Origin: an uncultured Candidatus Saccharibacteria bacterium
Lineage (GTDB): Bacteria > Patescibacteriota > UBA1384 > CAILIB01
DNA: 64,000 bases
Direction of reading: 5' to 3'
Assembly: GCA_964593885.1 (NCBI GenBank)
Contig: CAZQKK010000001.1
Coordinates: forward strand, 297,929-361,928
The notes beneath the pieces were generated by a model that ran no database searches, was not told the DNA's origin, and saw nothing but the letters and a program-made list of their open reading frames with translations. Shown piece after piece: positions 1 to 57,767 of the stretch; the first letter of the stretch is position 1; each line of letters begins with the position of its first letter. The position numbers and the translations under genes are program-made.

Positions 1-3000
1 ATTTCACCTGGGATGCCGATCCTTCGCTCAAGCAACGGGTCTCAATGCTTGAGAATACCCTCAATAAGCAGCTCAACGATCACAGTTTTGACCTGGCTGA
101 TATCCTTAGCCAGAACCTCCCTGCCAACCAGCTTGATACCATCCTCCTCAACAGGCTGAACCTCCTCACCGTAAGACCGGTAACCAAGAAGAGTAGTGCC
201 AACATCACCAAGTTTGAGCAGCAGTACAACGATCCAGCCTACAATGGCTGGCTCTTCCTCATCCAAGACTTGAGGCAGCGCCTCGATTGTAAGCTCACTA
301 ATGGTTACTACAGGGTTAAAGACGATAAGAAAGGAATGGAGTGCGCCCCTCGCCCTGGAGCTATTGAGGTACCTGAGGACGCGAAGTACGAAATCCAGGA
401 AGCAAAGCGCATCCTGGATAAGCTCTTTAAGCAACCTTGGGCACTGGTACAGAGCATCGTGAAGAGCCTCGAAACACGCACGTACAACGATCCAAGTGGT
501 TTTGTGAACCAGAGCGCTATGTCAGCCTCCATTGCCCTCTCCAGCGTGAAGTTTGCGGTTGATGAGAACCTGAGGTTCAAGCCTGAGACCATCTACAGCA
601 CCGATCTCGTACGTAGTCTCGTTGCTCCAAACGGGAAGGGGGTAGTACCACACAGCGCCTCAGTTGAAGCTTTCTTCAAACCTGACAGTAGCGGCAAGAG
701 CCTCTTGATGCGCTCAGGTATTGAGTACGCAGCCAAGAAGTTCAGTAACGACGCCCTTGGACAAGCAACCTTTGCGGCTCAGCTCAAGACAGACTTCGCC
801 GAAGTGGTAAGGATTAAAGATGATGTCGTAGACCTCTTTGATCTCGCTGAGAAAGACGCTGATGAGTACGGCTTTGACTATGAGAGCCTCGTAGAGAAGG
901 GGCTAGCCAACGATGACTTCATCAGGATCTTCCTCTTAGACCAGGCAAATGGGGTATTTGAACGTGTTGGTAAAGAGCAAGCACTCAGGGTTATTTGGCG
1001 AAAGAGCGGTGCAGCCGCCAAGATAAAGTCTTCTGAGCAGTACCAGAGCATCCTCAGGATTGCTCGTGAGAGCGTTAAGCAGCTTGAGTTCTATAAGAGT
1101 AGGCTCGATAGAATAAAAAGTCTCTCAGATGACCTGAGTGATAGAGTTGAGAGCCTCGGTGGTGACTTGTCACTCTTTGGTAGGCAGCTCAAGAAGGTGA
1201 ATGCATCAACGGATGTTGCCAACCTAGACAGCATCGAGCAGGTGCGGAAGCTCTCCAAGCGGTACGAGCCTACCCTCACCGCGATGACCAAGACGTTGAA
1301 GAGTGCGAACAGCAACGTACGTGATATCGCCCAGATTACCTACGAGATTCTCCACCTCACCCAGGAAATTGTTGCCGGAAGAGCGTTGCCACGTGATGAG
1401 AAGTTTGACACCAGCTACGTTTCGCTCAACCGCGCTCTGGAAGCAGGGGATCCTAGTAGGGCTAAAGACGGTTGCTTTGATAAAGCCACCTTACTCAGGT
1501 CACTCACAGGTTCAGGTGACCTTGGTCAGCGAATGTTTGACTTTGCAGTTGAGACCGGAACCTGCAGACTTGAGACGGGCCTTGGGCTTCCCAAGCAGTC
1601 AATCTTCCTCTGGTACAAGCTTGGCAGCCAAGAGTTTCCACCTACCAGGACTACAACGGTAACCTACCCTGAGGTAGTAGACGTAGAGACCGGCCTCCCA
1701 CTCACCGAGGCAACCTTCACCGTTGAAGAAACCTCCATCATGCCTCCGGCTGATACCAACCTGTTTGAGAAGCAACCTGACGGCAAGCTCAAGCCACTGG
1801 TTCCCACCTGGAACAAGAATCGTTGGTCAGCGGATAACCTGAAGCTTGCGGTGGGTATTGCCGATCAGATCCAGCGTAACCGTGACACCATCGATCCGGC
1901 TCAAGTTAGCCAATGGGCAGGACAACAAACGGCAGCCACTATTAACGACCTCATTAAAAAGGGGGAGCGGGTTCTTGCCGCCACGGCACTCTCAAAACTT
2001 GCCCAGATGATTCCGGGAGTTGGTAAGTTCCTCAAGCAGTACCAGATCACTGATAAGGAGTTGGTAGCCATCTTCCAGGGTAACTTCCAACCCCTCATTG
2101 CCAAGGTAGGTGGTGGATTCATTGACCAGGCCTTCAATCTACCTGCTGGAAGTGGAGCAGATCTCATCTACCCAGAGTGTAGCACCAACGATGGGAGGCG
2201 AGCCCCCTGTAACAAAGACCCAAACAATCCTCAGACAGATCCGGATAACGTAAGAATTAGGATTATTGCCGAAATTGGTCTCCAGAAGCTTGGTCTCACC
2301 ATGCCAAAGATTCCTCGCTACTTCAGCTTTAAATCTGGAGGTAACCTTGCTGAAAACTGGGGGAATGCCGCGGTGAGCGAGTACCTGAGAATCTCTCCAA
2401 ATAGCTTTAGGGGCAAGATGGTTGGAAGTAGCTACCAAGACACTCCTCTCGTTGATGAGTGTGAACAGCACGGCATACGGTGCATGAACACCTCAGGAAA
2501 CCTTGCCCGTGCATTTGGTTTTTCTTCTACCCCAACTGCCCGCAGCTTGGAGCGAATTAGGAGCGAGATTATGTACCAGTCTGATAAGCTCCTGACCACT
2601 GATGGCTACAGTATTGCGGATAATGCTTCGTTCTACCTCCAGAAAGCCTTGGAAGACTACTATGCCGCCGCAACCTTAGGTAGAGCTAGCAACGTTGAAG
2701 ATATCACCAACAAGAGGGGTTACTGGACCGATCTCAGTGCGCCGAGTGCCGCTGACAACGCGAGGCTTCTAGCAAATGCAGACGCCGACCCACAGGGTCC
2801 TTACCAAGCTGCCCTTGAAACAATCTGGGATTCGTTTGATGGTGGTATTTTCACCGCAGAGGTAAAATCTGCAATCCGGGCAATCATCCTCAGAAATCTT
2901 CCTGACAACATTGGCCCAGGGAGGGATGCTATCAATACCCTTCTCACCCCAGAGTACATTGATGGACTAGCTAGCGTTGAAGATTTCCCACTCTCTCTCA

Positions 3001-7328: not shown

Positions 7329-8694
7329 GCTTCGCAAGCTCTTCTCGTACTACTACTCTGTCGTCCCACTTATCTGTTTTTCCCTGCAGAATAATACTCT
7401 GCTCTGCCCCCTTACCGGTAATGAGGACTACATCACCTTTTGTTGCGAGCGAAAGAGCTTTGCGGATACCCTCGCGCCTGTCGGGGATGGCAAAGAGGTT
7501 GGTGCCACGCACAGCTCCCGCTCTTTCAGCCGCAATGGCAATATCCTCAATAATGGGGAGGGGATCGTCGTCGTAGGAGTCTACGTTTGAAACAATGGTG
7601 TAATCTGCTTTTTCTGCGGAAAGCCTTCCCATAACTGGGCGCTTTTTTGTATCCCTACCACCACCCTCTGCGCCCAATAGGAAGATGACCTTTCCTTTTG
7701 ATCCAGCCAGCAGCCTTCCAGCTTCAAGAGCACCAGTAACACTTGCCTCTTCGTGGGCGTAATCAACGAACACAGCAAAATCTTTGGCTTCGGTAATTCG
7801 CTCCATCCTTCCAGGAATAACCGTAAGTTCTTTGAGACCCCTTGAGATTTGTTCCGGAGTGGCCTTGAGGAGCTTTGCTAGGGCAATAGCCGGCAGGGCG
7901 TTGTAGACGTTGAAGGTACCTGGAATGGTTGTCTCGTACGATTCTTCTCCCAGCATGAAAGATACCCCTGAACCTGTTGATTGCAGGTTTGATGCCTTTG
8001 TATCAGCGCTCTTTGTAATGCCAAAAGTTAGTTTTTGGTCTGCTTCAAATGAGAGGTAGTAGTCTGCGTGCTCACTATCGCTATTAGCGATAATAGTTTT
8101 AGGAAACACCTTGCCTCGGAGTTTCTTTTTGGGGGAACTCTTAAGTGTTGCGAATAGCTTTCCTTTAGCCTGTTTGTATTTTTCGAAGCTACCTCCGTGC
8201 GAGGGGAGGTGTTCAGGGGTGAGGTTTGTAAATACCGCACAATCGTAGGAGATGCCAATGTGGCGGTACTGCTTGAGGCCTTCAGAGGTGGTTTCAACAA
8301 CGCAGATTTCGCAGCCAGCTTTTCCCATCTGTTTGAGGAGATCCTGAATGGCAGACCTTCCTGGCATGGTCATGTGGTACTTATTGAGGAGCTGTTCATC
8401 ACCAATTCTGATGTTTGCAGTACTGATAATGCCTGTTTTATACCCTGAAGCAGTAAGTACCGACCAGATGTAGTTTGCTGCCGATGTTTTACCTTTAGTG
8501 CCAGTAACCCCAATAATAATCATATCTTTGGCGGGGAAACCGTACTTGAAGGCTGTGGCGTACGATCTACCTGCGTGGTAACCGAGAATCAACTGTTCTG
8601 GGAGGAGTTTGCGGAGGAGTTTTTTCATGTAGTCATGATAGCAAACTAGGGGCGCGTACCAATTATGAGTGGCAGACGCATTGTTGTGTTCCAA
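7315..8694 (-). CDS. Mur ligase family protein (MurE/MurT-like); alternative start at internal Met (8628)
   Basis: P-loop GVTGTKGKTSAA (GTNGKT-type), Mur ligase middle-domain motif TNLTPEHLPSHGGSFEKYKQAKGKLF; converges on pilB with 14-nt overlap. Confidence 0.6.
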   Translation of the reverse strand: MEHNNASATHNWYAPLVCYHDYMKKLLRKLLPEQLILGYHAGRSYATAFKYGFPAKDMIIIGVTGTKGKTSAANYIWSVLTASGYKTGIISTANIRIGDEQLLNKYHMTMPGRSAIQDLLKQMGKAGCEICVVETTSEGLKQYRHIGISYDCAVFTNLTPEHLPSHGGSFEKYKQAKGKLFATLKSSPKKKLRGKVFPKTIIANSDSEHADYYLSFEADQKLTFGITKSADTKASNLQSTGSGVSFMLGEESYETTIPGTFNVYNALPAIALAKLLKATPEQISRGLKELTVIPGRMERITEAKDFAVFVDYAHEEASVTGALEAGRLLAGSKGKVIFLLGAEGGGRDTKKRPVMGRLSAEKADYTIVSNVDSYDDDPLPIIEDIAIAAERAGAVRGTNLFAIPDRREGIRKALSLATKGDVVLITGKGAEQSIILQGKTDKWDDRVVVREELAKLTLP

Positions 8695-9410
8695 TTTACG
8701 CGATCAAAATCTTTTGAATACATAGCCGTAGAGGGTCCACCATCTAGGTTCACTACGGTAATTTGCTGTCCTTTAAATACTTGCATCTCTTTCAATACAG
8801 CCCCTAGTTGCAGTAAGGAAATGGGCGAGGTTGCAGTTCCAAAGACAAAGCTACCTGTTGATGTCTTTCCTAAGAACGTACGTTTGTAGCTACCCAATCC
8901 GTTAATAGAGTTGGATATCTCCTGATCCTCAATTACGCCATCTGTGAGAATCTGTGGTCCGGTTTGAAATGCAAAGTCGCTACCACCTGTGATGTACTCA
9001 TTAACCTTAGAAAATACTAATTTGTTTTCACTAGCACTATAAGAAACTATCCTTGTGAGTTGTTTGTCTTGTAATACCTGACTACTATTCACTCCCTCTT
9101 CTTGAAAGAATCCAGCCGGAGTTGCCTTATCGTAACTTCCCTTAAAGTACGTGCCATTTACCGAGACTAGGTAGTTTTGCAGCCTTGAACCATCTTCTAG
9201 CGATGGCCCGTCCGACCATGAGTTACTCAGTTCTAGTGGTGTCGTAAACACCGCAACCCACACACCTGCCCTGGAGTATTCATACGTAACACCCTGTATG
9301 GTTATTGGGTTGGTTTCAGTTTTTCTTTTGGTATGTACTACTACAAGAACAATGGTAATTGTAGTTAGTAGTACTGCTAGATAAATTGGGAGGCGATTGG
9401 TGTTTTTCAC
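8646..9410 (-). CDS. Hypothetical membrane-anchored (N-terminal TM) exported protein; possible phosphodiester-glycosidase (NAGPA/DUF2233)-like LDGGPS motif
   Basis: N-terminal hydrophobic helix LPIYLAVLLTTITIVLVVV; motif VVNLDGGPSTAMY; no strong family signature. Confidence 0.4.
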   Translation of the reverse strand: MKNTNRLPIYLAVLLTTITIVLVVVHTKRKTETNPITIQGVTYEYSRAGVWVAVFTTPLELSNSWSDGPSLEDGSRLQNYLVSVNGTYFKGSYDKATPAGFFQEEGVNSSQVLQDKQLTRIVSYSASENKLVFSKVNEYITGGSDFAFQTGPQILTDGVIEDQEISNSINGLGSYKRTFLGKTSTGSFVFGTATSPISLLQLGAVLKEMQVFKGQQITVVNLDGGPSTAMYSKDFDRVNWNTTMRLPLIIGTRP

Positions 9411-9452
9411 GAAACAAGTCTAGCGCTTCAAGCATAGCTTTACCACTCGGAG

Positions 9453-9470
9453 AGATAGGGATTCGTTTGT
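9453..9470 (-). repeat. 18-nt direct copy of tRNA-Ser 3' end (cggagagatagggattcg), also at 9579-9596
   Basis: Exact 18/18 match seen in sequence, 126 bp apart. Confidence 0.55.
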
Positions 9471-9540
9471 TTGAACACGCCCCGCGTGTTCACTAGCCTT
9501 CGGCAGAGAGGTACTCGAATCCCTTCTTACTTACTTCAAA

Positions 9541-9575
9541 GAAAAAAGCCCTACCTATGGTAGAACTTTTTTCTT
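9541..9575 (-). terminator. Rho-independent terminator downstream of tRNA-Ser (hairpin ctacc-tat-ggtag flanked by A-run/T-run, bidirectional)
   Basis: aaaaaagccctacctatggtagaacttttttc. Confidence 0.5.
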
Positions 9576-9665
9576 TGGCGGAGAGATAGGGATTCGAACC
9601 CTAGGTGCAGTTTCCCACACAACGCGTTTCGAGTGCGCCGCCTTCGACCACTCAGCCATCTCTCC
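9576..9665 (-). tRNA. tRNA-Ser (type II, long variable arm), anticodon CGA inferred
   Basis: Reverse complement GGAGAGATGGCTGAGTGGTCGAAGGCG...CTCGAAA...TAGGGTTCGAATCCCTATCTCTCCGCCA; 7-bp acceptor stem pairs, encoded CCA. Confidence 0.8.
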
Positions 9666-11260: not shown

Positions 11261-11347
11261 GGTTCATATAGTAGCCTAGTTTTCAGGTTTAAACAAGTAC
11301 CCACAGTAGGGGCTGTGGAATACGTCAACCCTCGTAATCTTTACACT

Positions 11348-11376: not shown

Positions 11377-12771
11377 ATGGCTGAACTCAACCTCCAGGAA
11401 CTGTGGCAGAAGGTAACCACCCCACTACTAGATACGTTTGATGCACGGGTTTTTAATCCCATCGTCAAACCAGGAAGTATTATTTCGCTCTCTGTAGAGG
11501 AGTTGAGAATTTCTGTGGATAACCCTATGGGAAAACAGTTCTTCAGGAAGTACTGCGAAACACGCGTTCTAGAGAATATTGAGAAGGAGACAGGTATTTC
11601 TCCAGCAAAAATTACCTATGTCGTTCGCCCCCTCAATAAAGAGAGGATGAAACCAACTATAGAAACAAGTGAACCTCAACTCTTTCGCCCATCAAAGGAG
11701 CGTGGGTACACAGGAGAGCTTGTGGGCAACTCTCAAATCACCTCAAACCTCAATACAAAATATACTTTCAGTAATTTCATTACGGGCACAAAAAATAGGC
11801 TAGCCTTTGCTGCTGCCCAAGCAGTTGCCGAGAGTCCAGGAAATCTCTACAACCCCCTCTACCTCTATGGTGGAGTTGGACTTGGGAAAACCCACATCAT
11901 GCAGGCGGTTGGTAACGCAATTATTGAGCGAGATCCTAACGCAAAAGTACTCTACGTTGCATGTGAGAGTTTCCTTAATGAATTTGTGAGCTCCATTAAG
12001 AAGGGGAGTCCAGACTCATTTAAGAAAAAGTACCGCAACATTGATGTATTCCTTGTTGATGATATCCAGTTTATTGGGGGGAAGGATGGTGTTCAGGAAG
12101 AGTTCTTCCACACATTTAATGAACTACATCAAGCAGGAAAACAGATTGTGATGACCTCTGATAAGAGGCCAAGTGAAATTAATGGATTAGAAGAAAGGCT
12201 TGCGAGTAGGTTTAGTATGGGAATGGTTACTGATATCCAACTCCCAGACCAATCCACACGTCTAGCCATCCTTCAAACAAAGTGTCAAGAAAAAGGAATT
12301 TCACTACCTGAAAACATTCTCCGTTTTGTGGCGGATGAAGTTGAGACAAATATTCGTGAGCTAGAGGGTGCACTAACCACCCTTGTAGCCCATCTCCATG
12401 CCCAACAAGGGGATCTAAGTATTGAAACCACCCGCAAGGTACTCCAGGGGATTATTTCGCAACACACAACACCACGGAAGAGTAAGGTAGATGTGCTCTG
12501 TGAGATTATCTGCACACAGTATGGGGTTCAGAAAGAAGCTGTACTTAGCTCAGCGCGCCAGAGAGAAATTGTGAGACCGCGTCAGGTACTGATGTACCTA
12601 CTGAAACATGAGGTTGGAATGACGTACCCAATGATTGGGAGAGAAATTGGTGGGAGAGACCATACCACAATCATGCATGGTGTTGAAAAGATTACTACTG
12701 AACTAAAGAAAAACCCTGAACTACTTGAAGAATTACAAGGAATCAAACTTTCGTTCTATGATTCTAAATAA
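11377..12771 (+). CDS. dnaA: Chromosomal replication initiator DnaA (start taken at MAELNLQELW; track start 11347 overlaps the DnaA box)
   Basis: AAA+ Walker A GGVGLGKTHIM, Walker B VFLVDDIQF, C-terminal DNA-binding domain GREIGGRDHTTIMHG. Confidence 0.9.
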   Translation: MAELNLQELWQKVTTPLLDTFDARVFNPIVKPGSIISLSVEELRISVDNPMGKQFFRKYCETRVLENIEKETGISPAKITYVVRPLNKERMKPTIETSEPQLFRPSKERGYTGELVGNSQITSNLNTKYTFSNFITGTKNRLAFAAAQAVAESPGNLYNPLYLYGGVGLGKTHIMQAVGNAIIERDPNAKVLYVACESFLNEFVSSIKKGSPDSFKKKYRNIDVFLVDDIQFIGGKDGVQEEFFHTFNELHQAGKQIVMTSDKRPSEINGLEERLASRFSMGMVTDIQLPDQSTRLAILQTKCQEKGISLPENILRFVADEVETNIRELEGALTTLVAHLHAQQGDLSIETTRKVLQGIISQHTTPRKSKVDVLCEIICTQYGVQKEAVLSSARQREIVRPRQVLMYLLKHEVGMTYPMIGREIGGRDHTTIMHGVEKITTELKKNPELLEELQGIKLSFYDSK

Positions 12772-23441: not shown

Positions 23442-23826
23442 CTCGGTCTAGGTGGGGGTAGAGAACCTTACCATCCTGTGTGGAAGCAAACTCGTTTACC
23501 CTCACAATAGAGAGATGGGGAAAAGCTGTGGCTAGTGCCTGTTCCAACTGTGTGGTAACGCGGGAAGACCTTTCGCTCTGACTTGTTTCGCCCCCATCAG
23601 CGGAAAGTGGCACTCCAATTACGAGAGTTGCGACACCGTGAGAGCTGATGAGTTGAGAAACGCTGGCCAGGAGGCCATGGATGTGGGGGAGTTCCCACGC
23701 AATAGTTTGGAGGGGCTGTACGTCCAGTCCATTTGGTGAGAGTGCTGCCCCAGTTCGCTTCAACCCGATATCAAGCCCCAGAAGGGGGCTACTCATAGCT
23801 TGTCTTGATGCTGATACTGCCAGCAA
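23383..23826 (-). CDS. ruvX: Putative pre-16S rRNA nuclease / Holliday junction resolvase-like YqgF (RuvX)
   Basis: LLGLDIGLKRTGAALS N-terminus (RNase H-like); classic yqgF-mltG adjacency. Confidence 0.8.
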   Translation of the reverse strand: MLAVSASRQAMSSPLLGLDIGLKRTGAALSPNGLDVQPLQTIAWELPHIHGLLASVSQLISSHGVATLVIGVPLSADGGETSQSERSSRVTTQLEQALATAFPHLSIVRVNEFASTQDGKVLYPHLDRDAAAACTILTSYLESIHHE

Positions 23827-25648
23827 AGCGAGGGAACTGTTTCAGCGGCCACCAGCTAGGTGATTGGGTGATGGTAACGCTGCTGGCGGGCGTAGCCTCA
23901 GTTACCAGTGCTTGCCCTGAGGTTAGGCTCTTTCCTACGAGCTCGGCCGGGAGGTTCTCAGTGCTGAATACGGGGGTAATTTTACCGCTAGCCTTTGCAG
24001 CAAGGGTAATGGTTTGGGTTTCAAACGAAACCGCAGTTACCGTATTGCTGCTGCTTTCAACGAGACGTTTCTCAGTGGTTGTCTCCTTGCTCTTGAAGTA
24101 ACTCTCTACAGCTTGGGTGAAGGAGGCTTTATCGATGATGATGCGCTCCAGAGAACCCTTACTGGTAGCCAGGAAAGATTCTCCTTCGGCGTTAGCCTCA
24201 AGTGAGGTGGTGAATGTTACAGCTCCTAGGAGGTCTGAGCCATCCTGGAAAATGGTCTCACGGTTTGCGGTTGCTTCGTTGAGCTTGGTAACAAGACTGT
24301 CACGGAGCTGTTTGGCGAGGGTGTTCTTGGCATTGGTAATGTCAGATGCAGAGACTACCTTGAGTTCCTGGCTAGTACCACCAGTGGTGCTGTCAATCTG
24401 GGCGTAGAGTATGGTAGATGGGCTGGTAATATTTGCGATAAGATTACTGACATTACTTTCGCTCCCTACATTCTCAGCGGTAATACTCACACTTGCAGAG
24501 CCAGGGGTTTGTTTCCCAGGTTTTATGATTACGCCAGGGACAGTGACCGCCACATTGGTAGTAAATGACCTCCCATTTGCTTCCAGTCGTGCTCCAGCTG
24601 GAAGACTGACAGGATCACTATCCTGACTGTTAAAGATGGTGGCTGTGCCTTTTGCTGTAACTCCAATTTTCTTTGTTCCAGTGCTCTGAAAACTGGCGCT
24701 TACCTCTCCGTCCTGTTTTATCCTTTCGGCAGGAACTATGGTGCCGTCACTTGAGACGCTGGTGCTGGTAACGTTACCAGCAATGGTGAAGTCTTGATCC
24801 CATGGCTTTGCTTGAACGGTGAGTACTACTGTGGTTTTTGGGAGGAAGAAGAAGCTACACAGCAGGGCGATGATGAGCACTATGCCACCAATAAGGTAGA
24901 AGGGGCGAAGTTTATTGGTACCACCAGCATCAACCTTTGAAACTACTGGTGTGACAACAGGTTTAGAAGCCTTTACTACTACCTTTTCCTCTGGTGGGGT
25001 AGGTGCTTGCGTAGCAGGAGTCTTCACTTCGCTTTCGAGATCTTCTGGTGAAACTTCTTCTATAGATGCTTCAGGTACTGTGGTGCGCTTGAGGGGTTCT
25101 GACGGAACCTGTGGTTTAGCAACTGGTTTAGGTACCGGTTGCGGGGTGATTTCTACTGCAGGAGCCGCAACTGGCGGGGCAACAGCAGGAGCCTCTTGGA
25201 GGAGGTTTTTCGGGACGATGGCGGTAGCAGAAGCTGCAGTGGTAACCGTTGCGGCGGGGAGGGCATCAGCGTCGCCATCGGCAGGTTCAGCATCGGGGCC
25301 GTCGTAGTAGCGGTGGATTCTTACCCCAGCAATAACCGAGGCGTTCTCTTCGTCGCCGGCATCTCCTTCGCCACGCGCAACCCTGGCCACGTCTTTTTCG
25401 CTACTTGCTACGTTGATACCAACCTGGGCAGCAAGGTTTCTGCCAATTTTGTCGGTGGTGACGAGGATGAGGTCTTTCTCAGCGTCGCCGGCCGCCTTCT
25501 TCGCGAGCTTGAGGTTGACGATACTCTGGGTGAGAACGGCTCCTTTTGGAACCACGAGGGCAACTATCGGTTCGTGGGAGGCTTTGAGCCTCTCGATAAC
25601 CGAGGTAATTTCGTCGCTACTGTCGATGTAGATTGTCTCAATACTCAT
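23789..25648 (-). CDS. Hypothetical bitopic membrane protein (619 aa): ~100-aa N-terminal cytoplasmic domain, Pro/Ala-rich linker, one TM (FYLIGGIVLIIALLCSFFFL), ~350-aa Ser/Thr-rich extracytoplasmic domain; translationally coupled to ftsA (ATGA overlap)
   Basis: Topology read from sequence; no FtsZ GGGTGSG motif; no family recognised. Confidence 0.55.
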   Translation of the reverse strand: MSIETIYIDSSDEITSVIERLKASHEPIVALVVPKGAVLTQSIVNLKLAKKAAGDAEKDLILVTTDKIGRNLAAQVGINVASSEKDVARVARGEGDAGDEENASVIAGVRIHRYYDGPDAEPADGDADALPAATVTTAASATAIVPKNLLQEAPAVAPPVAAPAVEITPQPVPKPVAKPQVPSEPLKRTTVPEASIEEVSPEDLESEVKTPATQAPTPPEEKVVVKASKPVVTPVVSKVDAGGTNKLRPFYLIGGIVLIIALLCSFFFLPKTTVVLTVQAKPWDQDFTIAGNVTSTSVSSDGTIVPAERIKQDGEVSASFQSTGTKKIGVTAKGTATIFNSQDSDPVSLPAGARLEANGRSFTTNVAVTVPGVIIKPGKQTPGSASVSITAENVGSESNVSNLIANITSPSTILYAQIDSTTGGTSQELKVVSASDITNAKNTLAKQLRDSLVTKLNEATANRETIFQDGSDLLGAVTFTTSLEANAEGESFLATSKGSLERIIIDKASFTQAVESYFKSKETTTEKRLVESSSNTVTAVSFETQTITLAAKASGKITPVFSTENLPAELVGKSLTSGQALVTEATPASSVTITQSPSWWPLKQFPRFAGSISIKTSYE

Positions 25649-49719: not shown

Positions 49720-51186
49720 ATGAGTAACGTACGCGTCAGGTTCGCCCCAAGTCCAACTGGAGACCCTCACCTCGGTAACATTAGAACCGCTGTTTTTGAC
49801 TACCTTTTTGCTAGGGCCACCGGCGGAACCTTCATCCTGCGGGTAGAGGACACCGACCGTGCACGGCTTAATGATGGCAGCTTGGAGCGTATGTATGAAG
49901 CTCTCGCGTGGCTAGGAATTGAGCCAGATGAGGGGGTGTACGTAGACGGTCAAGGTAATATTTGCCAGCGTGGAGACGTTGGTCCGTACATCCAATCTGA
50001 GCGAAAAGAGATCTACGGCCGTTACGCAAAAGAGCTTCTGGAAGCCGGGAAAGCCTATCGCTGCTTCGCTACCTCAGAGGAGCTAGATGTCATGAGGAAG
50101 GAACAGCAGGCGGCTGGTTTGCCACCTCGCTACGACAGACGTTTCCGTGACCTCCCACGTGAAGAGAGTGACTCGCGCGCCGCTGCGGGTGACCCATTTG
50201 TCATACGCCAAGCAATGCCATTGACGGGCGAGGTACTAGTTCACGATGTCATCCGAGGCGATGTTTCGTTCCAGTGCCCAGACCTTGATGACCACGTCCT
50301 GCTTAAGGCAGATGGCTACCCAACCTACCAGTTTGCCAACGTGGTTGACGATTACCTCATGGAGATTACCCATGTCCTGAGGGGAGAGGAGTACGTTTCC
50401 TCGGCTCCTAAGAATGTTCTCCTGTACCAAGCATTTGGTTGGGAAGCTCCAACCTGGGCTCACCTCCCACTCATCGTTGGTGCGGATAAAGCAAAGCTTT
50501 CAAAGCGTCACGGTGCTGAAACGGTGCTAGCTTACAGAGATAAGGGCTACCTACCTGAGGCGATACTCAACACCCTCGCCTTCATTGGCTGGAACCCAGG
50601 CACTGAAGAAGAGTTCTTCAGCAAAGAGCAGTTGGCAGAGAGGTTTACGCTGGAGCGAATCCAGAAAGCTGCAGCAGTGTTCAACCCTGAAAGGTTAGAT
50701 TTCGTGAATGGTCACTACATCCGTCAGATGACTGATGAGGTTGTAGCCGAGCATATGCTCCCATGGCTTGAGAGAGATGGTATCCAGGTATCAGACAGAG
50801 GCTACCTGGTAAAGGTAGCGGCACTCCTGAAGGAGCGTTTCAAACACTTCGACGAAACCTCAGGTTTCACCTGGTTCTTCTTCAAACGCCCCGAGGTAAC
50901 TGACGCGCTTCGAGAACTTGTCGTACCCAAAAAGCTTACCTATGAGCAGGTTCAGGAGAACCTCAGGTTTGCGGTAGAAATCCTTGAAGAACTTGAGGAC
51001 TGGAGTCAGGACTCGCTTCATACCACTCTCATGGAAGCTATTGCAGAGGCAAGTAAGAAGAACGGCGAGGTACTCTGGCCAATCCGGGCTGCTCTCACTG
51101 GTGAGCCTGCTTCGCCTGGTGCATTTGAGATGCTTGAGGTGCTTGGTAAAGCTGAGAGCCTTGAGAGGTTGCGTCCGCTGCTCTAG
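49720..51186 (+). CDS. gltX: Glutamyl-tRNA synthetase
   Basis: HIGH-type PSPTGDPHLGNIRTA, KLSKRHG (KMSKS). Confidence 0.9.
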   Translation: MSNVRVRFAPSPTGDPHLGNIRTAVFDYLFARATGGTFILRVEDTDRARLNDGSLERMYEALAWLGIEPDEGVYVDGQGNICQRGDVGPYIQSERKEIYGRYAKELLEAGKAYRCFATSEELDVMRKEQQAAGLPPRYDRRFRDLPREESDSRAAAGDPFVIRQAMPLTGEVLVHDVIRGDVSFQCPDLDDHVLLKADGYPTYQFANVVDDYLMEITHVLRGEEYVSSAPKNVLLYQAFGWEAPTWAHLPLIVGADKAKLSKRHGAETVLAYRDKGYLPEAILNTLAFIGWNPGTEEEFFSKEQLAERFTLERIQKAAAVFNPERLDFVNGHYIRQMTDEVVAEHMLPWLERDGIQVSDRGYLVKVAALLKERFKHFDETSGFTWFFFKRPEVTDALRELVVPKKLTYEQVQENLRFAVEILEELEDWSQDSLHTTLMEAIAEASKKNGEVLWPIRAALTGEPASPGAFEMLEVLGKAESLERLRPLL

Positions 51187-51244
51187 GTGATTGCTAATCT
51201 GGTGGTTTCTGGTACACTTTCCCTGTTCTCGAGGGATTATACAC

Positions 51245-51505
51245 ATGTCATCTGAAGGAATCATTCACGCCAAGATTGGCGAGCCGCTCGTTGTTGAGAT
51301 TGAAGGAGCGATACTCACCATTGAGTGTGTTCCTTCTAGATCTGGTGGAAAGGATGTGAGGATTACGGTTGAAAACCTTGATCCGAATATGGGTTTTGCC
51401 TACATCATCAAGGGGTGTGACGGTACCAAGCGTTCAAGTGGTGGGTCGTCTCCCCAAGCTCTTGTTGAGGGAAATGGCGAACGAACACCAGCACTCCCTG
51501 ATTAG
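51245..51505 (+). CDS. Hypothetical small protein, weak CsrA-like resemblance
   Basis: AKIGEPLVVEIEGAILTIEC...KDVRITVE vs CsrA RRVGETLMIGDEVTVTV..VRIGVNAP; inference only. Confidence 0.3.
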   Translation: MSSEGIIHAKIGEPLVVEIEGAILTIECVPSRSGGKDVRITVENLDPNMGFAYIIKGCDGTKRSSGGSSPQALVEGNGERTPALPD

Positions 51506-51518
51506 CTCACCAGTTTCC

Positions 51519-51542
51519 AAACGCCCACATCGGGCGTTTTTT
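51519..51542 (+). terminator. Rho-independent terminator
   Basis: acgcccacatcgggcgttttt. Confidence 0.6.
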
Positions 51543-51598
51543 CGTGGGAATTTTATGTACACTAGTACGTACACCGGCATGATGCCGGGTGGTGGAAT

Positions 51599-52246
51599 AT
51601 GAAGTGGATTCTGACGTTCCTCGTAGTTGTGCTGGGTTTCCAGCGAGTTGATAGCGCGCCGTTTGTGGCTGAGGTGTTTGCGAAACCTGCCAGGTACTCG
51701 TTTGCCGATGTGAAGTTTCACGTGAGCTACGTGCCCGGGGGAGTTCCTAGGGCAAAGCTTGCGGCGAAGTACCCGGAGGTGAGTGGGTTTCTCGACGCCA
51801 TTCCAGGTGGGTACTTCTCCCCGGAGAGTAACCCAATAAGGAACGTAGACTACACGCTCAAAGGCTCCCAGTTGCTGGTTCCGTACCTTTCAGAGAGGCA
51901 GCGCCCAGTGATTCTCTTCTCTGAAAGGGGAGCAAGGATTGCCTGGCCTGAAAAGGGTAAAGGGGGATTTACCCGATCTGTAGACGAGACCGAGGGATTG
52001 GCCGGTGACAACCACTGCCAGAAGCCTGGCAAATCGCTCCTGCGAACCATTGTGGGCGTGACCAAGTCAACCCTGACGGTGTACCTGGTGAGGGGAACTG
52101 AGCATCAGTGCCACAAGTTCATGGCGACGGAGCAGTACCAGCACAAGCAGTACCTGTTCATGGATGGGGGCGATTCAGTGCTCCCAACCACCCCCATGCC
52201 CTCGCATATCGTCATCTTCAGGAAGACGAGACAGGCATTTCAGTAA
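51599..52246 (+). CDS. Hypothetical secreted protein (signal peptide MKWILTFLVVVLGFQRVDSA)
   Basis: Signal peptide; FMDGGDS motif loosely like the LDGGPS motif of 8646-9410 protein. Confidence 0.45.
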   Translation: MKWILTFLVVVLGFQRVDSAPFVAEVFAKPARYSFADVKFHVSYVPGGVPRAKLAAKYPEVSGFLDAIPGGYFSPESNPIRNVDYTLKGSQLLVPYLSERQRPVILFSERGARIAWPEKGKGGFTRSVDETEGLAGDNHCQKPGKSLLRTIVGVTKSTLTVYLVRGTEHQCHKFMATEQYQHKQYLFMDGGDSVLPTTPMPSHIVIFRKTRQAFQ

Positions 52247-52270
52247 GCACCCGCCTGGGTGCTTTTTTTG
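52246..52270 (+). terminator. Rho-independent terminator
   Basis: agcacccgcctgggtgcttttttt. Confidence 0.6.
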
Positions 52271-52326
52271 AACCTGGTTTTCTGGTACAGTAGCGGAAGC
52301 GAAAAAGGCAGAGACAAACAGCGTAT

Positions 52327-52401
52327 TGCCCGGTGGCCAAGTGGTAAGGCGCCTGATTCTGGATCAGGTTACCGTAGGTTCGAATCCTACCCGGGCAGCC
52401 A
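52327..52401 (+). tRNA. tRNA-Gln (anticodon CTG)
   Basis: TGCCCGG/CCGGGCA acceptor, anticodon arm CCTGA-TTCTGGA-TCAGG, T-arm GTAGGTTCGAATCCTAC, encoded CCA. Confidence 0.8.
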
Positions 52402-52402
52402 A

Positions 52403-52437
52403 AGAAAAAGAACAGACAATGTCTGTTCTTTTTCTTT
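52403..52437. terminator. Hairpin terminator after tRNA-Gln (agaacagaca-atg-tctgttct, A-run/T-run)
   Basis: Read from sequence. Confidence 0.5.
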
Positions 52438-52562
52438 GCTTATCTCGAGAGGATTCGAACCTACGGAGTAGGTGAGAATCCTATAGTCATGCATTTTGCA
52501 TGACTATCACGAGTGTCATATTCAGGTGAGCACAGTGAACCTGACTTGATACGAAGTATGGA

Positions 52563-52576
52563 GGGCAGCCAAAGAA
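52563..52576 (+). repeat. Direct copy of tRNA-Gln 3' end plus flank (gggcagccaaagaa; first copy 52394-52407)
   Basis: 14/14 identical, 16/18 with flank. Confidence 0.5.
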
Positions 52577-52662
52577 TAAGAAGCCCTTCTGGGTGTTTTT
52601 TGATAATTCTATAAGATTCAGGCTTGGCGACAATTCTTAGTAATCAGTAACATCTAGTACAT

Positions 52663-54477
52663 TTATTTATCAGGCAATACCTCTTGGAACCTCAGGATAT
52701 CTTCATAGCAATAGCCATCTGAAGTCTGATTAGCACGATTGATAATTGATGTAATAGGTAGCTTATTTCGCTTCGCAAAAGTTATAATTCCACTATAATG
52801 TAGTCCAGTTTTTTGACCGATAGCCAGTGCGCTCGCCCAATGTTTGCCATTTTTATCTGTATAGAATCCCGCCCATTCACCCGAGGTCTCAACTCTATTT
52901 TCTTCTGAAAGACGCCGTTTGATTGGCTCATAATCCAGTACATCCTCAAGACAGTAGGCAGTTGAAGTTCGGTGGCTTTTTACAGATCGTGTAGGCAAGT
53001 TACTTTCAGAAAGAAGTTTATGGGTGTTACTCGTATCAAGGTTAAGTTTTTTTGCAATTACGGAAGAACTTCCCCAGTGCCTTCCTTCTTCATCAACATA
53101 GAATCCCGCCCATTCACCCGAAGTCTCAACGTTGAGGGAACTGCGCTCAGTAAGGTATTCTTCTGGTACGAGGGGAATGAGTTGCTCTAAGCAGTACCCA
53201 ACTGTAACTCTATTGAGCAGATCTTTGATTGTTCTTGTAGTAAGTATCGAATTGTTGCTCTTTATAACTTGTTCAAGTTGACTCGGGTTGATCCCGATCT
53301 GTTTTGCAAGAGTATTTTTAGTGCTCCAGTGATTATACTCCTCATCTTCCCAGAAACCCTTGAAGGGATCTGAATCAGCTACTGAGACCTCTGGGGTCAC
53401 GAATTCCTGTTTGATTTCCTCCAATTGCTGCACATCCTCAATACAGTAGGCATCGTATATTGAGCCACGAATAGAGCGAATTTTTTGTGTAGTGAGCTGG
53501 TTATTATCCCTGAGAATAGACTCGAATTTCCCTTGTTTGATACCGAGTTTATTCCTAATTGCAGCTTGCGTTCCCCAGTGCTTACCAGCTTCATCTGTGT
53601 GAAACCCTTTCCATGGATCTAAATCATCGACGGAAGCTACAACGTAATCAGGTTCACCTTCGATATGTTCTGATGACCTTTCTTGCACTTGCATCGGTGC
53701 AAGTAGATACGTACTCATTACCTCTCGCCAAGCAGGCTGCTGGATAACCCTCATCCCAATCCCAGGAAGCTCCGCAATAATCGCATTTAAATCTTCTTTT
53801 GAAGCGTGGTCTAGCAAAGTGAGCTCAACGCCGATTTCACCAAGTAGCCCGGTGTCGAAAATATAGGAAGCGTTACCTTCTTCTTCACACACATACACCG
53901 CTCTCTCTAGTGAGGGGACTTCAACTCGGTAGTATGGCTCTTCTCTAAACCACCGTTCATCTACTTCTCCCCGAGTAATACCTATCTCCTCTGGGTTGAT
54001 GTCGCAATCAGATTCAAGTAAGAAGAGGAGCGTCTTGAGGCGGGGGATGATGTCTTTTTCGGTAAATGTGGACTCACCATTCCCGAGGGCCAAGGGTTGC
54101 GATCCGGGTGGGATGAGAAATGCATCTGATTCTCCAATAGCCGTTTCTGAAATACGTTCTTGTATGTCAAGTATTGTTTGCTGTATCTCTTGCGCTCGTT
54201 CCAGGGCACTACCAATACTGGATAGGCCAAAGAGCTCGTAAGCAGAATTTTCTAAGGCATCATCTGTGAGATTTGCTGTAGTGACCCCTGTCTCTTTGTA
54301 AGCAGTAGTAACTTCATCTGTAAGTTCAATCAGTGCATCCAAGACAGCATCCGCATACGTGTCTATGTTTTCTAGTGAAACATTCGTATGGAGAATGCTT
54401 TCAAGTTGATTCTGAAATAACTCCTGTTTTCTTGGAGTGTCAGGTCTAGTATGTGACGGCGGAAAATTCTCACTCAT
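52663..54477 (-). CDS. Hypothetical protein with four tandem ~75-aa repeats (W-x-G-F-x-D-E-x-G-x-HW ... G-Y-C-x-E-D) after a ~280-aa N-terminal domain
   Basis: Repeats DPWKGFHTDEAGKHWGT.., DPFKGFWEDEEYNHWST.., GEWAGFYVDEEGRHWGS.., GEWAGFYTDKNGKHWAS.. read directly. Confidence 0.6.
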   Translation of the reverse strand: MSENFPPSHTRPDTPRKQELFQNQLESILHTNVSLENIDTYADAVLDALIELTDEVTTAYKETGVTTANLTDDALENSAYELFGLSSIGSALERAQEIQQTILDIQERISETAIGESDAFLIPPGSQPLALGNGESTFTEKDIIPRLKTLLFLLESDCDINPEEIGITRGEVDERWFREEPYYRVEVPSLERAVYVCEEEGNASYIFDTGLLGEIGVELTLLDHASKEDLNAIIAELPGIGMRVIQQPAWREVMSTYLLAPMQVQERSSEHIEGEPDYVVASVDDLDPWKGFHTDEAGKHWGTQAAIRNKLGIKQGKFESILRDNNQLTTQKIRSIRGSIYDAYCIEDVQQLEEIKQEFVTPEVSVADSDPFKGFWEDEEYNHWSTKNTLAKQIGINPSQLEQVIKSNNSILTTRTIKDLLNRVTVGYCLEQLIPLVPEEYLTERSSLNVETSGEWAGFYVDEEGRHWGSSSVIAKKLNLDTSNTHKLLSESNLPTRSVKSHRTSTAYCLEDVLDYEPIKRRLSEENRVETSGEWAGFYTDKNGKHWASALAIGQKTGLHYSGIITFAKRNKLPITSIINRANQTSDGYCYEDILRFQEVLPDK

Positions 54478-54513
54478 ATCTTCCTCTAGTATAACTCATG
54501 ATACGATACCTAT

Positions 54514-54825
54514 ATGCTAACCAAACCAATCTCAGGTGGAACTTTCCACAAGCTTCCCGCAGACCTGCGTGATGCCCTCGTGGCGAAGCCAAAGGCACTC
54601 AAGGCGTGGGAGAGTCTCACCCCGCTAGCGCGTAACGAGTGGATTTGCTGGACAATCTCGGTCCAACAACAGAAGACTCGCGACCACCACATCAAGCGTG
54701 CGGTCACCGAGCTCCAGGAGGGGAAACGGCGGCCGTGCTGTTGGATTGGCTGCATCCATAGGACTGATAAAGCTATAAGTCCGTCAATTCGGGGCATACT
54801 TGCAAAACGGGGGAAGGCAAAGTAG
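54514..54825 (+). CDS. YdeI/OmdA-family (bacteriocin-protection-like) small protein
   Basis: LTPLARNEWICWTISVQQQKTRDHHIKRAVTELQEGKRRPC pattern. Confidence 0.5.
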   Translation: MLTKPISGGTFHKLPADLRDALVAKPKALKAWESLTPLARNEWICWTISVQQQKTRDHHIKRAVTELQEGKRRPCCWIGCIHRTDKAISPSIRGILAKRGKAK

Positions 54826-54832
54826 CTGTAGT

Positions 54833-55456
54833 ATGATTCGCAAAGTTTCTGGAACAACTGTCAGCTACAGAGATAGTCACCAAGGCACAATATTGGGCTG
54901 CATCGCCATTGCGGCAATTCCATTTTTTTATGGAATTCTTGACCTGGTTGATCATGGAACGGGGTTCAGTTTATTCAAGAGTACAGCTCCTCCATTCTTT
55001 GCGTTCGCACTCTTCCTCTATGCTGTAAAACGGTCGATAGATTTGAGAATTCAATCAGATGGAACGGTCACGTACCGAATGTCGCGTTTTGGGCTGGGGA
55101 AAACCTCCCAATTCACCAAGAAAGATATTACCGAAGTAGTGGTAGCCGCCCATATTGATGATCGTAGAGTTGTGGCACAGCTGAGACAGGTGAGGGGTAA
55201 GTCTGTTCCTAATCTCGAACCCATGACAGCGTGGGGTTGCTGGGTAATCACTGGAGAAAGAGAGCTGTTTCTCAGCCTACTTGGCTACACTAAGGGGGAC
55301 CCTGAAAAGTTTTTTGAAGATGAGAGCTATAGAGATGTGTATTCTCTGCCACAGGGATTGGCTCAGGAGCTAGGCGTACCCCTGAAACTAATGACGCGGC
55401 AGAAGGGATTTCTAGAAGAACTAGTAGTTACTAAGGGAGAACCTGAGTCAAAGTAG
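54833..55456 (+). CDS. Hypothetical membrane protein (2 N-terminal TM + soluble domain)
   Basis: ORF + hydrophobicity only. Confidence 0.4.
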   Translation: MIRKVSGTTVSYRDSHQGTILGCIAIAAIPFFYGILDLVDHGTGFSLFKSTAPPFFAFALFLYAVKRSIDLRIQSDGTVTYRMSRFGLGKTSQFTKKDITEVVVAAHIDDRRVVAQLRQVRGKSVPNLEPMTAWGCWVITGERELFLSLLGYTKGDPEKFFEDESYRDVYSLPQGLAQELGVPLKLMTRQKGFLEELVVTKGEPESK

Positions 55457-55474
55457 CTGTACCATCGCCCCCAA

Positions 55475-55502
55475 CAAAAAAGCACCCTTTCGGGTGCTTT
55501 TT
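55475..55502. terminator. Bidirectional rho-independent terminator
   Basis: aaaaaagcaccctttcgggtgcttttt. Confidence 0.65.
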
Positions 55503-55503
55503 C

Positions 55504-55698
55504 CTAACCTACCAATCCGGCTTGCTTGAGTAGCCAGATGAAAACCCCAATTGAGATGATGAACAGCCCGAGACCAATAGGTGATCCCCAACTGAACCAC
55601 GATCCCCATGCCCGCCAGTGCTGAGCTGGCCAGGGCTCCCACTTGTAGTCAATGTCCTGAATGTTCACTTCAGGTGACTTCTTTTTCTCTACTAGCAT
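55504..55698 (-). CDS. Hypothetical small Trp-rich membrane protein (64 aa)
   Basis: Ends right at terminator; single TM LGLFIISIGVFIWLL. Confidence 0.35.
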   Translation of the reverse strand: MLVEKKKSPEVNIQDIDYKWEPWPAQHWRAWGSWFSWGSPIGLGLFIISIGVFIWLLKQAGLVG

Positions 55699-56736: not shown

Positions 56737-56804
56737 CGCCCGCCAACCAACCAGTCTCTGTCGTCACCAAGGTGGCGACTTTTTTGTTGCTATACTCACT
56801 ACAT

Positions 56805-57767
56805 ATGAAAGCAATTATCACCCCTTCCTACGGCCCTGCTGAACTCCAGCAGCTCAGAGAAGTACCTAAGCCATCGCCTAGCAAAGGTCAGGTGCTCATT
56901 AAGGTGCATGCGACTACGGTGAATCGGACCGATACCGGACTCCGTTCCGCACAGTACGTTGTCTCAAGGCTATTTACCGGCCTCCTGAAACCTCGCTTCA
57001 AAACCTTTGGGAGCGAATTTGCCGGGGAGGTGGTAGGTCTGGGTGAAGGAGTTACTGAGTTTGCTGTTGGTGACAGGATTTTTGGCTTCAACGACACCAT
57101 GTGCGGTGCGCATGCTGAGTACATGGTCACACCTGCCGCTGGTGCCATCGCCCCAATTCCCAAGGGGTTGAGTTACCTTGAAGCGGCGCCACTGGGTGAG
57201 GGGGCACAGTACGCACTCAACAACATTCGAGCAGCCGGCGTGAAAAAGGGTGATACGGTTCTGGTGTACGGGGCTAGCGGGGCAATTGGCTCGGCAGCGG
57301 TACAGATTTGCAAGTACCTGGGAGCAAGGGTGACTGCTGTATGCGGAACGAAGCACGTTGATCTTATCAAAACGTTCAAGCCAGATAGAGTAGTTGATTA
57401 CCAGCAGGAAGATTTCACCGATACCACAGAGCGGTATACCTTCATCTTTGATGCGGTGGGGAAGAGTACCTTTGGTGTGTGTAAGAAGTTGCTGCTCCCG
57501 GGGGGATCGTACTCATCTACTGAGCTGGGACCTCGAGGAGAGAATGTGTACCTGGCGCTCTGGTTTGCCCTCATCCGCAAGAAGACGCTACTCTTTCCTA
57601 TCCCGCAAGCAACCAGGGAAAAGGTTGAGTACATCAAAATGCTCGTGGAAAATGGCGATTTTACGCCACTTGTTGATAAGACCTACCCACTCAACCAGAT
57701 TGTAGAGGCAACCAAGTACGTAGAGAGCGGCCAAAAGGTAGGGAACGTGATTATCAAAGTTTTGTAA
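56805..57767 (+). CDS. NAD(P)H-dependent quinone oxidoreductase / zinc-type alcohol dehydrogenase superfamily (MDR)
   Basis: GroES-like N-term, Rossmann GASGAIGSAAVQICKYLGARV. Confidence 0.8.
   Translation: MKAIITPSYGPAELQQLREVPKPSPSKGQVLIKVHATTVNRTDTGLRSAQYVVSRLFTGLLKPRFKTFGSEFAGEVVGLGEGVTEFAVGDRIFGFNDTMCGAHAEYMVTPAAGAIAPIPKGLSYLEAAPLGEGAQYALNNIRAAGVKKGDTVLVYGASGAIGSAAVQICKYLGARVTAVCGTKHVDLIKTFKPDRVVDYQQEDFTDTTERYTFIFDAVGKSTFGVCKKLLLPGGSYSSTELGPRGENVYLALWFALIRKKTLLFPIPQATREKVEYIKMLVENGDFTPLVDKTYPLNQIVEATKYVESGQKVGNVIIKVL

Follow-up and report, generated by a model that had tools for sequence, protein, structure and literature searches.

The tycheposon islands of Prochlorococcus contain partial tRNAs scattered along their length, stacked elements and degenerate remnants, and new elements push older ones inward (bioRxiv 10.1101/2020.12.28.424599). 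Another kind of tRNA-derived repeat is found in Escherichia coli K-12, where three units of 178 nt come after the tyrT-tyrV operon, each ending in the 19-nt 3' end of tRNA-Tyr and holding a T-loop-like inverted repeat (TTCGACCAAGGTTCGA) and GCA/GAA triloop hairpins; the first of these units is annotated as the RttR RNA. Short segments between attachment (att) sites are also familiar from streptococci, in which cis-mobilisable elements (CIMEs) have been described as att-flanked remnants of integrative elements without recombination genes. Here, we describe a unit that runs from the CCA of tRNA-Gln(CTG) to a second copy of the tRNA's 3' end in an uncultured Candidatus Saccharibacteria bacterium (GCA_964593885.1, contig CAZQKK010000001.1, positions 297,929 to 361,928). 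The window is this whole stretch of 64,000 nt, and positions are counted from its first letter.

The exchange of accessory and defence genes in very small genomes with few recognisable mobile elements is poorly understood. At this locus, the genomes of a lineage differ exactly at a copy of a tRNA tail that is set in a compact hairpin unit, with no integrase in sight. We propose, and regard as about an even call, that the second copy of the tRNA 3' end is a recombination site or junction in a hotspot of gene flux after tRNA-Gln. The proposal builds on what we observed of the unit's anatomy and its conservation, of breakpoints in the repeated core, of differences in unit number and of gene segments delimited by cores in relatives.

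The tRNA-Gln 3'-end copy in the window and in related loci

The sequence GGGCAGCCAAAGAA at the end of tRNA-Gln recurs exactly at 52563, as the original prediction for this stretch had it, and the recurrence is part of a longer match (Table 1). The 170 bp between the two repeats hold no credible gene, the only open reading frame (ORF) being one of 70 aa that overlaps the tRNA. The repeats are not due to chance, because of shuffle tests and of a background check on 71 tRNAs from unrelated loci, where a direct repeat of the 3' end of at least 11 nt occurred within 450 nt in two cases and an inverted repeat in none.

Relatives were found by exact look-ups with the upstream 215-aa protein itself and with homologues of GltX, plus a metagenome scan for the tRNA 3' end. 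The GltX homologues that served as a handle are 59-93% identical to that of the window; the best match among the GTDB species genomes is only 48% identical, and the GTDB species collection therefore contains no close relative. Patescibacteria figure among the top GltX matches of that collection, in keeping with a bacterium of probable CPR/Patescibacteria type. Ten syntenic loci (labelled L here) show gltX, sometimes one or two small genes, and then tRNA-Gln. A terminator of like style and a T-loop-like hairpin follow the tRNA in all ten, and in most of them hairpins and then a copy of the local tRNA 3' end lie 117-166 nt downstream. About half of the downstream copies also have a terminator-style hairpin on their 3' side. 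The sequence of L119 indicates that the copy tracks its local tRNA: this locus has one copy, with its own acceptor variant CCCAGGCAGCCA in tRNA and copy alike (22 nt identical). The units are mosaics of different blocks, not one conserved structure.

The comparison with relatives suggested by the original prediction revealed indel polymorphism. In these between-species comparisons, homology between the window and L082 stops at 52567 and that between the window and L091 at 52560, both within the distal core copy or at its margin, and the number of units varies. L082 has two tandem units, the extra one of 151 nt, that have ~71 nt in common at 89% identity, and in L117 a separate terminator accompanies each of the 3'-end copies at +141 and +648. 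Repeat-bounded presence/absence polymorphism, a feature of att sites, is thus seen in the extra unit of L082, the extra segments of L117 and the breaks in homology. One terminator type (AAGACAGCT...AGCTGTCTT) is found after the tRNA in L089, after the second copy in L119 and after the third copy in L117. This shared type at a shifting position would fit insertions that separated the tRNA body from an older 3' end and so pushed older ends outward. Several assemblies break at or near the locus (L081, which ends at window position 52596; L210, whose scaffold ends ~700 nt after gltX; L087; L088), as would be expected if repeats or strain variants confuse the assembler.

The gene just past the 3'-end copy is different in every genome. 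In the window it encodes a 604-aa protein, which has no match in Pfam, PHROG, PADLOC or NCBIfam and whose homologues sit in other variable regions with no tRNA or integrase nearby. In L082 the slot is occupied, on the plus strand, by a ResIII helicase with weak type IV restriction matches, and in other relatives by a type IIG restriction-modification enzyme, an AAA ATPase, a FecR/fn3 protein, toxin-antitoxin genes or unknown genes. The accessory block that had been predicted directly after the module is borne out by this variable gene, but nothing suggests an island reaching past 64 kb: synteny with L082 is back at 54514, so that the adjacent accessory segment is a single gene, and synteny is found again from 57760 on.

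Cores also delimit gene segments in the relatives. After segments of ~1-6 kb, and always in the orientation of the tRNA, we found a conserved arm of ~50 nt (CCAGTATTTACyCTGTTCCAGCACCGTCCGAACTTTTCCAGGAT), mostly followed by the core CGGGCAGCCA (degenerate in two copies) and usually then by an A/T-tract terminator. Such copies of arm and core number four in L111/L121, two each in L099 and L091 and one in L117 (nhmmer E 1e-33 to 7e-10), and the window segment 52500-52605 aligns weakly with the arms. Inspected by eye, these repeats have no more than a short stem (YCCGA...TYGGG). L121 has a type IIG restriction-modification gene that is bordered on one side by a core copy at 8580 and on the other by an arm with degenerate core (CGGGGCAGTCA) at 11482-11604, so that cargo is enclosed between repeats (copies at 8580 and ~11530) as at att sites. 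In L099, arm and core at 8818-8883 are followed by a complete second unit, an arrangement that would be the expected product of an insertion at the tRNA core.

Other observations concern the accessory gene and the stretch beyond it. The family of the 604-aa protein is rare (10 clusters, 28-40% identity) and has a conserved N-terminal domain of ~290 aa and three to six repeats of ~80 aa (GEWxGFxTDxxGxHWG...KLG...YCYED); in the AlphaFold model of the protein (predicted local distance difference test, pLDDT, 78), the repeats match only weakly the winged helices of the BldC/Xis/RacA type (E >= 0.36). Further on, comparison with L082 shows an insertion of 631 bp with a 218-aa ORF (54800-55456, no family match). 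On either side of the insertion is one copy of a 16-nt direct repeat (AGGCAAAGTAGCTGTA / AGTCAAAGTAGCTGTA; 54815-54830 and 55446-55461), of which L082 has a single copy. A zinc alcohol dehydrogenase gene (56772-57767; variable stretch 56789-57759) is missing from L082 and present in L089 and L091, so that there are several flexible points between the tRNA and ~58 kb.

Anatomy of the unit, its tRNA-Ser counterpart and their setting

All the elements of the original prediction are present, at most 2 nt from where it had placed them (Table 1), and the terminator hairpin that it saw downstream of tRNA-Gln is confirmed. Its inverted T-arm fragment is real, but matches over 17 nt (52450-52466) and not over 16 contiguous nt within 52449-52466. 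Its palindrome is perfect, but the 12-bp stem and tttt loop given for 52481-52507 have to be corrected to 11 bp and 3 nt (52483-52507), since the string contained one T too many and T52482 and C52508 are unpaired. The 47-nt inverted repeat, the direct T-arm copy, two further hairpins and the counterpart at tRNA-Ser had been overlooked.

Table 1. Features of the tRNA-Gln and tRNA-Ser loci, in window coordinates.
Feature	Position	Strand	Basis
tRNA-Gln(CTG), CCA encoded	52327..52401	+	ARAGORN; Rfam RF00005, 68.8 bits
Two-way intrinsic terminator: A-tract/stem/T-tract, 18 bp, loop AAU	52400..52438	.	fold -23.7 kcal/mol, z -9.3
47-nt inverted repeat centred on terminator loop	52372..52466	.	83% complementary, gap-free
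Inverted copy of variable-loop/T-arm segment CCGTAGGTTCGAATCCT, 17/17	52450..52466	-	reverse complement of 52372-52388
Hairpin H1: GGATTC-GAA-CCTAC-GGA-GTAGG-TGA-GAATCC	52450..52482	+	-18.5 kcal/mol, z -5.8
Direct, slightly altered T-arm copy (GTAGGTgaGAATCCTA, 14/16)	52468..52483	+	local alignment
Perfect palindrome ATAGTCATGCA-TTT-TGCATGACTAT, 11-bp arms, 3-nt loop	52483..52507	.	-14.0 kcal/mol, z -6.7
Hairpin S: CAGGT-GAGCACAGTGA-ACCTG, conserved loop motif GAGCnnAGYGA	52523..52543	+	fold
Hairpin ATAC-GAA-GTAT, just 5' of the 3'-end copy	52549..52559	+	triloop-hairpin scan
Direct copy of tRNA 3' end and trailer (GGGCAGCCAAAGAAtAAGAA, 19/20), candidate recombination core	52563..52582	+	comparison with 52393-52412
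Weak terminator-like hairpin GCCC-TTCT-GGGT, then T6	52583..52601	+	sequence; fold only -6.6 kcal/mol, z -1.8
Strain-variable accessory gene, 604 aa, outside the repeats	52663..54477	-	GC 0.44-0.47 vs ~0.52 in flanks
tRNA-Ser(CGA)	9576-9665	-	
Analogous unit of tRNA-Ser(CGA): tRNA, two-way terminator, inverted T-loop piece GGGATTCGA, hairpins, 3' copy	9445..9665	-	

The arms of the 47-nt inverted repeat (52372-52418 and 52420-52466) are in register and pair the T-arm, 3' end and terminator against the terminator, spacer and inverted T-arm; the stretch 52365-52470 can be folded as a single hairpin (-61.8 kcal/mol, z -10.4). The inverted copy is the sole other match to the T-arm segment in the 64 kb, even at three mismatches (0.14 expected), and it forms hairpin H1 by pairing with the direct T-arm copy. 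In the second unit of L099, 30 nt of H1 are identical (8929-8958); a short form of the hairpin, GGATTCGAAGAATCC, is found in L082 and L111/L121, and L099 has GATTCGAAGAATC. The palindrome that follows has identical stems in L082 and L091, with a different loop in L091. We considered it as a dif/Xer-like site and set this idea aside, as it bears no resemblance to dif by eye and the locus lies near the presumed replication origin (dnaA at 11347).

The hairpins further downstream vary in their stems and keep their loops. Around the motif GAGCnnAGYGA, the stem CAGGT/ACCTG of hairpin S is replaced in L110 by TTCGT/ACGAG, with the loop unchanged, which we read by eye as two double (compensatory) changes. 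The hairpin that precedes the core has at least five different stems, the equivalents of the one at 52549-52559 being ATCGC-GAA-GCGAT (L099, L110), GACC-GYA-GGTC (L082, L091) and ATCCC-GCA-GGGAT (L117). The weak hairpin after the 3'-end copy is the positional analogue of the terminators after 3'-end copies in L082, L117 and L119. As a whole, the unit of the window folds with z -5.4, compared with modest values of -0.5 to -2.8 for the other units.

The other tRNA gene of the window, tRNA-Ser(CGA), is followed by a unit with the same layout, built from that tRNA's own sequence. An exact 18-nt copy of its 3' part, CGAATCCCTATCTCTCCG, lies at 9448-9465, and its hairpins are GCC-GAA-GGC and GAACACGC-GGG-GCGTGTTC. 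Just beyond the copy is a gene for a 254-aa protein with a phosphodiester glycosidase (NAGPA) domain (8646-9410, minus strand). A different genome with an identical L34 protein (L209) carries a degenerate version of the unit and lacks the NAGPA gene, the Mur ligase gene following directly there. The 18-nt sequence was found in 84 IMG/VR viral contigs, often near the contig end, and at least four of these contigs contain two copies that are oriented alike; it is therefore plausibly, on these sequence matches, the att core of prophages elsewhere. Both tRNA genes are oriented away from the dnaA region, and the cumulative GC skew climbs from ~10 kb onward. If the origin is near dnaA, the strand with the G-N-A hairpins would be the lagging-strand template at both tRNAs.

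By gene content, the window is cellular chromosome, neither phage nor plasmid: rpmH-rnpA-yidD-yidC adjoin dnaA-dnaN-recF, and there are genes for mreBC, a penicillin-binding protein, secA, dnaE, L27/L19, lactate permease and four aminoacyl-tRNA synthetases. Megablast searches gave no match for 50500-55500 among phages or for 52300-52680 among E. coli genomes. Upstream of tRNA-Gln lie gltX, a short ORF (~77-104 aa) and the gene for the 215-aa protein, none of which has a recombinase domain. The 215-aa protein was discarded as a candidate recombinase, having no domain match and an N-terminus that is hydrophobic and, by eye, like a secretion signal peptide. Two terminators, at 52245-52275 and 55480-55510 (the latter also kept in L082), are 77% identical in an alignment of 31 nt that takes in the bases 3' of the T-run (AAGCACCC....GGGTGCTTTTT..AACCT), and may represent a lineage-typical terminator or an old duplication. 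A 1915-aa ORF (45-5792), which adjoins a type II/IV secretion ATPase gene, and a 619-aa ORF (23789-25648) have no match in Pfam or NCBIfam.

Recombination junction, trailer element or replication by-product

If the unit is a recombination junction, it would start right after the tRNA CCA, bring its own terminator and small hairpins and end in another tRNA 3' end. The repeated 3'-end sequence (core about CCCGGGCAGCCA across loci, GGGCAGCCAAAGAA here) would serve as the recombination site, with DNA inserted or exchanged at a core copy. Each event would leave a tRNA 3' end and a terminator beside the tRNA body and push the earlier copy downstream, and repeated events at the core would thereby make the region after tRNA-Gln a hotspot for short gene segments, often of defence type. 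The gene-less unit of the window would be a cargo-less mini-element, or a remnant after loss of its cargo, with the 604-aa gene just past the distal core. We infer that the enzyme acting on the core is a site-specific recombinase encoded elsewhere and not RecA, to which the units would offer portable homology, and that the G-N-A hairpins of the sense strand would be part of the site and act when single-stranded. A bolder version, which we consider a long shot, is that tRNA genes seed an integron-like capture of genes: segments would move in and out at tRNA-3'-end cores, the units would work as folded single strands (C-GNA-G mini-hairpins, confined to one strand) with a recombinase encoded elsewhere in the genome or a host enzyme, and the 170-bp unit would be an empty landing pad.

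Several results weigh against a recombination junction. We found no integrase or recombinase domain by Pfam in the window ORFs of at least 180 aa that were scanned, and no recombinase in the gene tables of ~10 related loci (~150 kb in all); Pfam searches of the ORFs 3' of tRNA-Gln in L082, L091, L099, L107, L110, L111, L117 and L119 gave no integrase either. An integrase, which the original prediction had suggested looking for at the far end of the accessory region, was missing from both sets, and none was found inside or next to a repeat-bounded segment. Viral contigs scanned for exact matches to the palindrome, to two versions of the tRNA-Gln 3' end and to the arm and core of the relatives gave none, as did a scan of JGI metagenomes for the palindrome block and a sensitive blastn search of phage and plasmid collections with the 261-nt unit (52402-52662). 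In the window, the accessory gene lies outside the repeat pair, where foreign cargo would be expected between the repeats, and a third core copy was not found in the 64 kb. The unit nearest the tRNA is conserved across deep divergence and the distal cargo is variable, the opposite of what a simple model, with the newest insertion nearest the tRNA, predicts. Five relatives also have, upstream of the tRNA, incomplete copies of the 5' part of tRNA-Gln (TGCCCGGTGGCC, in some cases longer, up to AAGTGG; L082 10721-10837; L089 12560-12670; L091 2870-2927; L099 1650-1707; L121 8270-8383). These lie 55-57 nt before the start of the tRNA, in L082 also 113 nt before it, and after each copy come a small hairpin and a segment that is complementary to it; none was found in the window, L117 or L119. 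The trailer repeats of E. coli tyrT, which share the layout, are not regarded as att sites. Finally, the compensatory stem changes and a strong strand bias of the hairpins are unlike a passive scar. The 13 units contain 35 perfect hairpins with 3-nt loops, compared with 6.5 +/- 2.5 in shuffled sequences and 8.4 +/- 3.1 in random segments of the same loci, and G-N-A loops number 20 on the tRNA-sense strand and one on the other, although these counts are not fully independent since some hairpins are homologous copies.

The hairpin excess and its strand bias also argue for a functional trailer element of the rtT/RttR type, which we think possible but unlikely. The read-through RNA, or the single-stranded sense DNA, would fold into hairpins, and enzymes that process tRNA ends could release or trim it by way of the terminal copy of the 3' end and the T-arm-like hairpin in front of this copy. 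The repeats would then serve a function and would have been copied by unequal crossing-over and not by integration. Stems that change around constant loops, in hairpin S and in the hairpin before the core, agree with this, as do the stable fold of the whole unit, the presence at both tRNAs of the window of a unit that copies the tRNA's own 3' end, and the like layout of the tyrV trailer units of E. coli K-12, the first of which is annotated as the non-coding RNA RttR. A trailer RNA would, however, have to pass the very strong terminator between tRNA and unit, and there is no room for a promoter of its own before H1 because only ~12 nt separate H1 from the terminator. A search of 50000-55000 against all Rfam families at E <= 1 (cmscan) returned only the tRNA and chance matches of microRNA type, with no match to RtT, and the whole window at the gathering threshold only the two tRNAs. 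The modest folding of the other units and their mosaic make-up, with no single conserved structure, argue against an RNA as well, and the breaks of homology in the core and the cores that separate gene segments are left unexplained. C(GNA)G triloops form unusually stable mini-hairpins in DNA and are better known there than in RNA. Their stability hints at a role for the single-stranded form of the sense strand. The trailer element and the recombination junction are not mutually exclusive.

It is improbable, in our judgement, that the unit is a non-functional by-product of replication errors at the terminator palindrome (template switching, then slippage or unequal crossing-over), unrelated to the turnover of genes next to it. 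The exact register of the inverted copy with the T-arm about the terminator axis, in gap-free arms of 47 nt, is what template switching would leave; inverted and direct copies arise easily because the T-loop core TTCGAA is itself palindromic, and the stretch common to the two units of L082 looks like a tandem duplication. Yet in the window the palindrome's acceptor-strand part is mismatched at 8 of 12 positions between flanks of 17 and 18 nt that pair perfectly, unlike neutral decay. The architecture is kept where GltX identity is only 59-67%, and at a second tRNA, the hairpin loops are biased to one strand, and breakpoints and cassette boundaries coincide with core copies. Much less probable still is that the region holds the remains of a minus-strand tRNA gene that faced tRNA-Gln and had the terminator in common with it. 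Read on that strand, 52466-52440 resembles a T-arm followed by 13 nt and the terminator, and a loose cloverleaf can be drawn with the palindrome at the position of the D-arm (minus-strand fold z -4.8), but at 52440-52600 that strand gives no match with ARAGORN or the Rfam tRNA model, the pairing proposed for the acceptor (CTCG/CGAG) is lost in L091 and L082, the piece is reduced to the palindrome GGATTCGAAGAATCC in other relatives, and the G-N-A loops are on the plus strand. We rejected a minus-strand tRNA or tRNA-like cloverleaf, as its pairing is not conserved.

The proposal of a recombination junction thus retains part of the original prediction, in which the duplicated tRNA 3' ends were an att-type integration scar: the breakpoints behave as a recombination junction and the number of units varies, but the interval of 170 bp is gene-less and no integrase was found. 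A lineage-wide unit, found at a second tRNA, with strand-specific G-N-A hairpins and a likeness to RttR, makes a decaying scar probably too simple a description. If the units are active recombination sites, hotspots of gene flux in metagenome-assembled genomes could be found by a simple marker, and the units would point towards a recombination system not recognised so far. If they are processed RNAs (e.g., an RNA ending at ...GGGCAGCCA), they would extend the old, unexplained rtT puzzle of E. coli to a distant phylum. If they are neither, the unit would be an ordinary att-type scar.

Comparison with described systems

The closest systems differ from the locus in different respects. The E. coli trailer repeats share a unit of ~170-180 nt that runs from the tRNA CCA to a copy of the tRNA 3' end and can be in tandem. 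They differ in that their units are near-identical with a fixed period of 178 nt, have no intrinsic terminator between tRNA and unit, include the small tpr gene in the first unit and are not known to border variable genes; the locus described here also has no match in sequence or structure at E <= 1 to the Rfam RtT family (RF00391). CIMEs likewise consist of a short segment between two att-type repeats without integrase, and give incoming elements a second attachment site (accretion). Known CIMEs are kilobases long and come from identifiable integrative and conjugative elements with a known integrase, whereas the segment here has 170 bp and no known cognate element. Integron arrays (attI, attC, IntI) resemble the segments of one to three genes in the relatives, each followed by a co-oriented repeat with hairpin potential. 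However, there is no IntI beside the array, neither intI nor attI was found at its head (the genes upstream of the tRNA having no recombinase domain), the repeat consists of a tRNA 3'-end core and a terminator instead of the R''-L''/L'-R' of attC, and the segments are larger, with genes in both orientations.

The tRNA-seeded islands and prophages with attL/attR (Islander, PMC4383910; tycheposons, bioRxiv 10.1101/2020.12.28.424599) have in common with this locus an intact tRNA with a displaced direct copy of its 3' end, several co-oriented partial tRNA copies in a variable region beside the tRNA, and cargo rich in defence genes. The Prochlorococcus islands are alike, too, in belonging to a small streamlined genome and in that most island DNA has no integrase. 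Judged from their sequences, the arrays of the relatives match the pattern that repeated insertions at the tRNA core would leave, the same as that of tycheposons. In contrast to such islands, no integrase was seen in any of the loci here, the repeats of the window are only 170 bp apart with no credible gene between them, conservation is found in the proximal unit and variation in the distal cargo, the G-N-A hairpins are strand-specific and some relatives have 5' copies upstream. The known kinds are thus att-type partial-tRNA repeats and tRNA trailer repeats, and what is new here is a compact, hairpin-structured variant.

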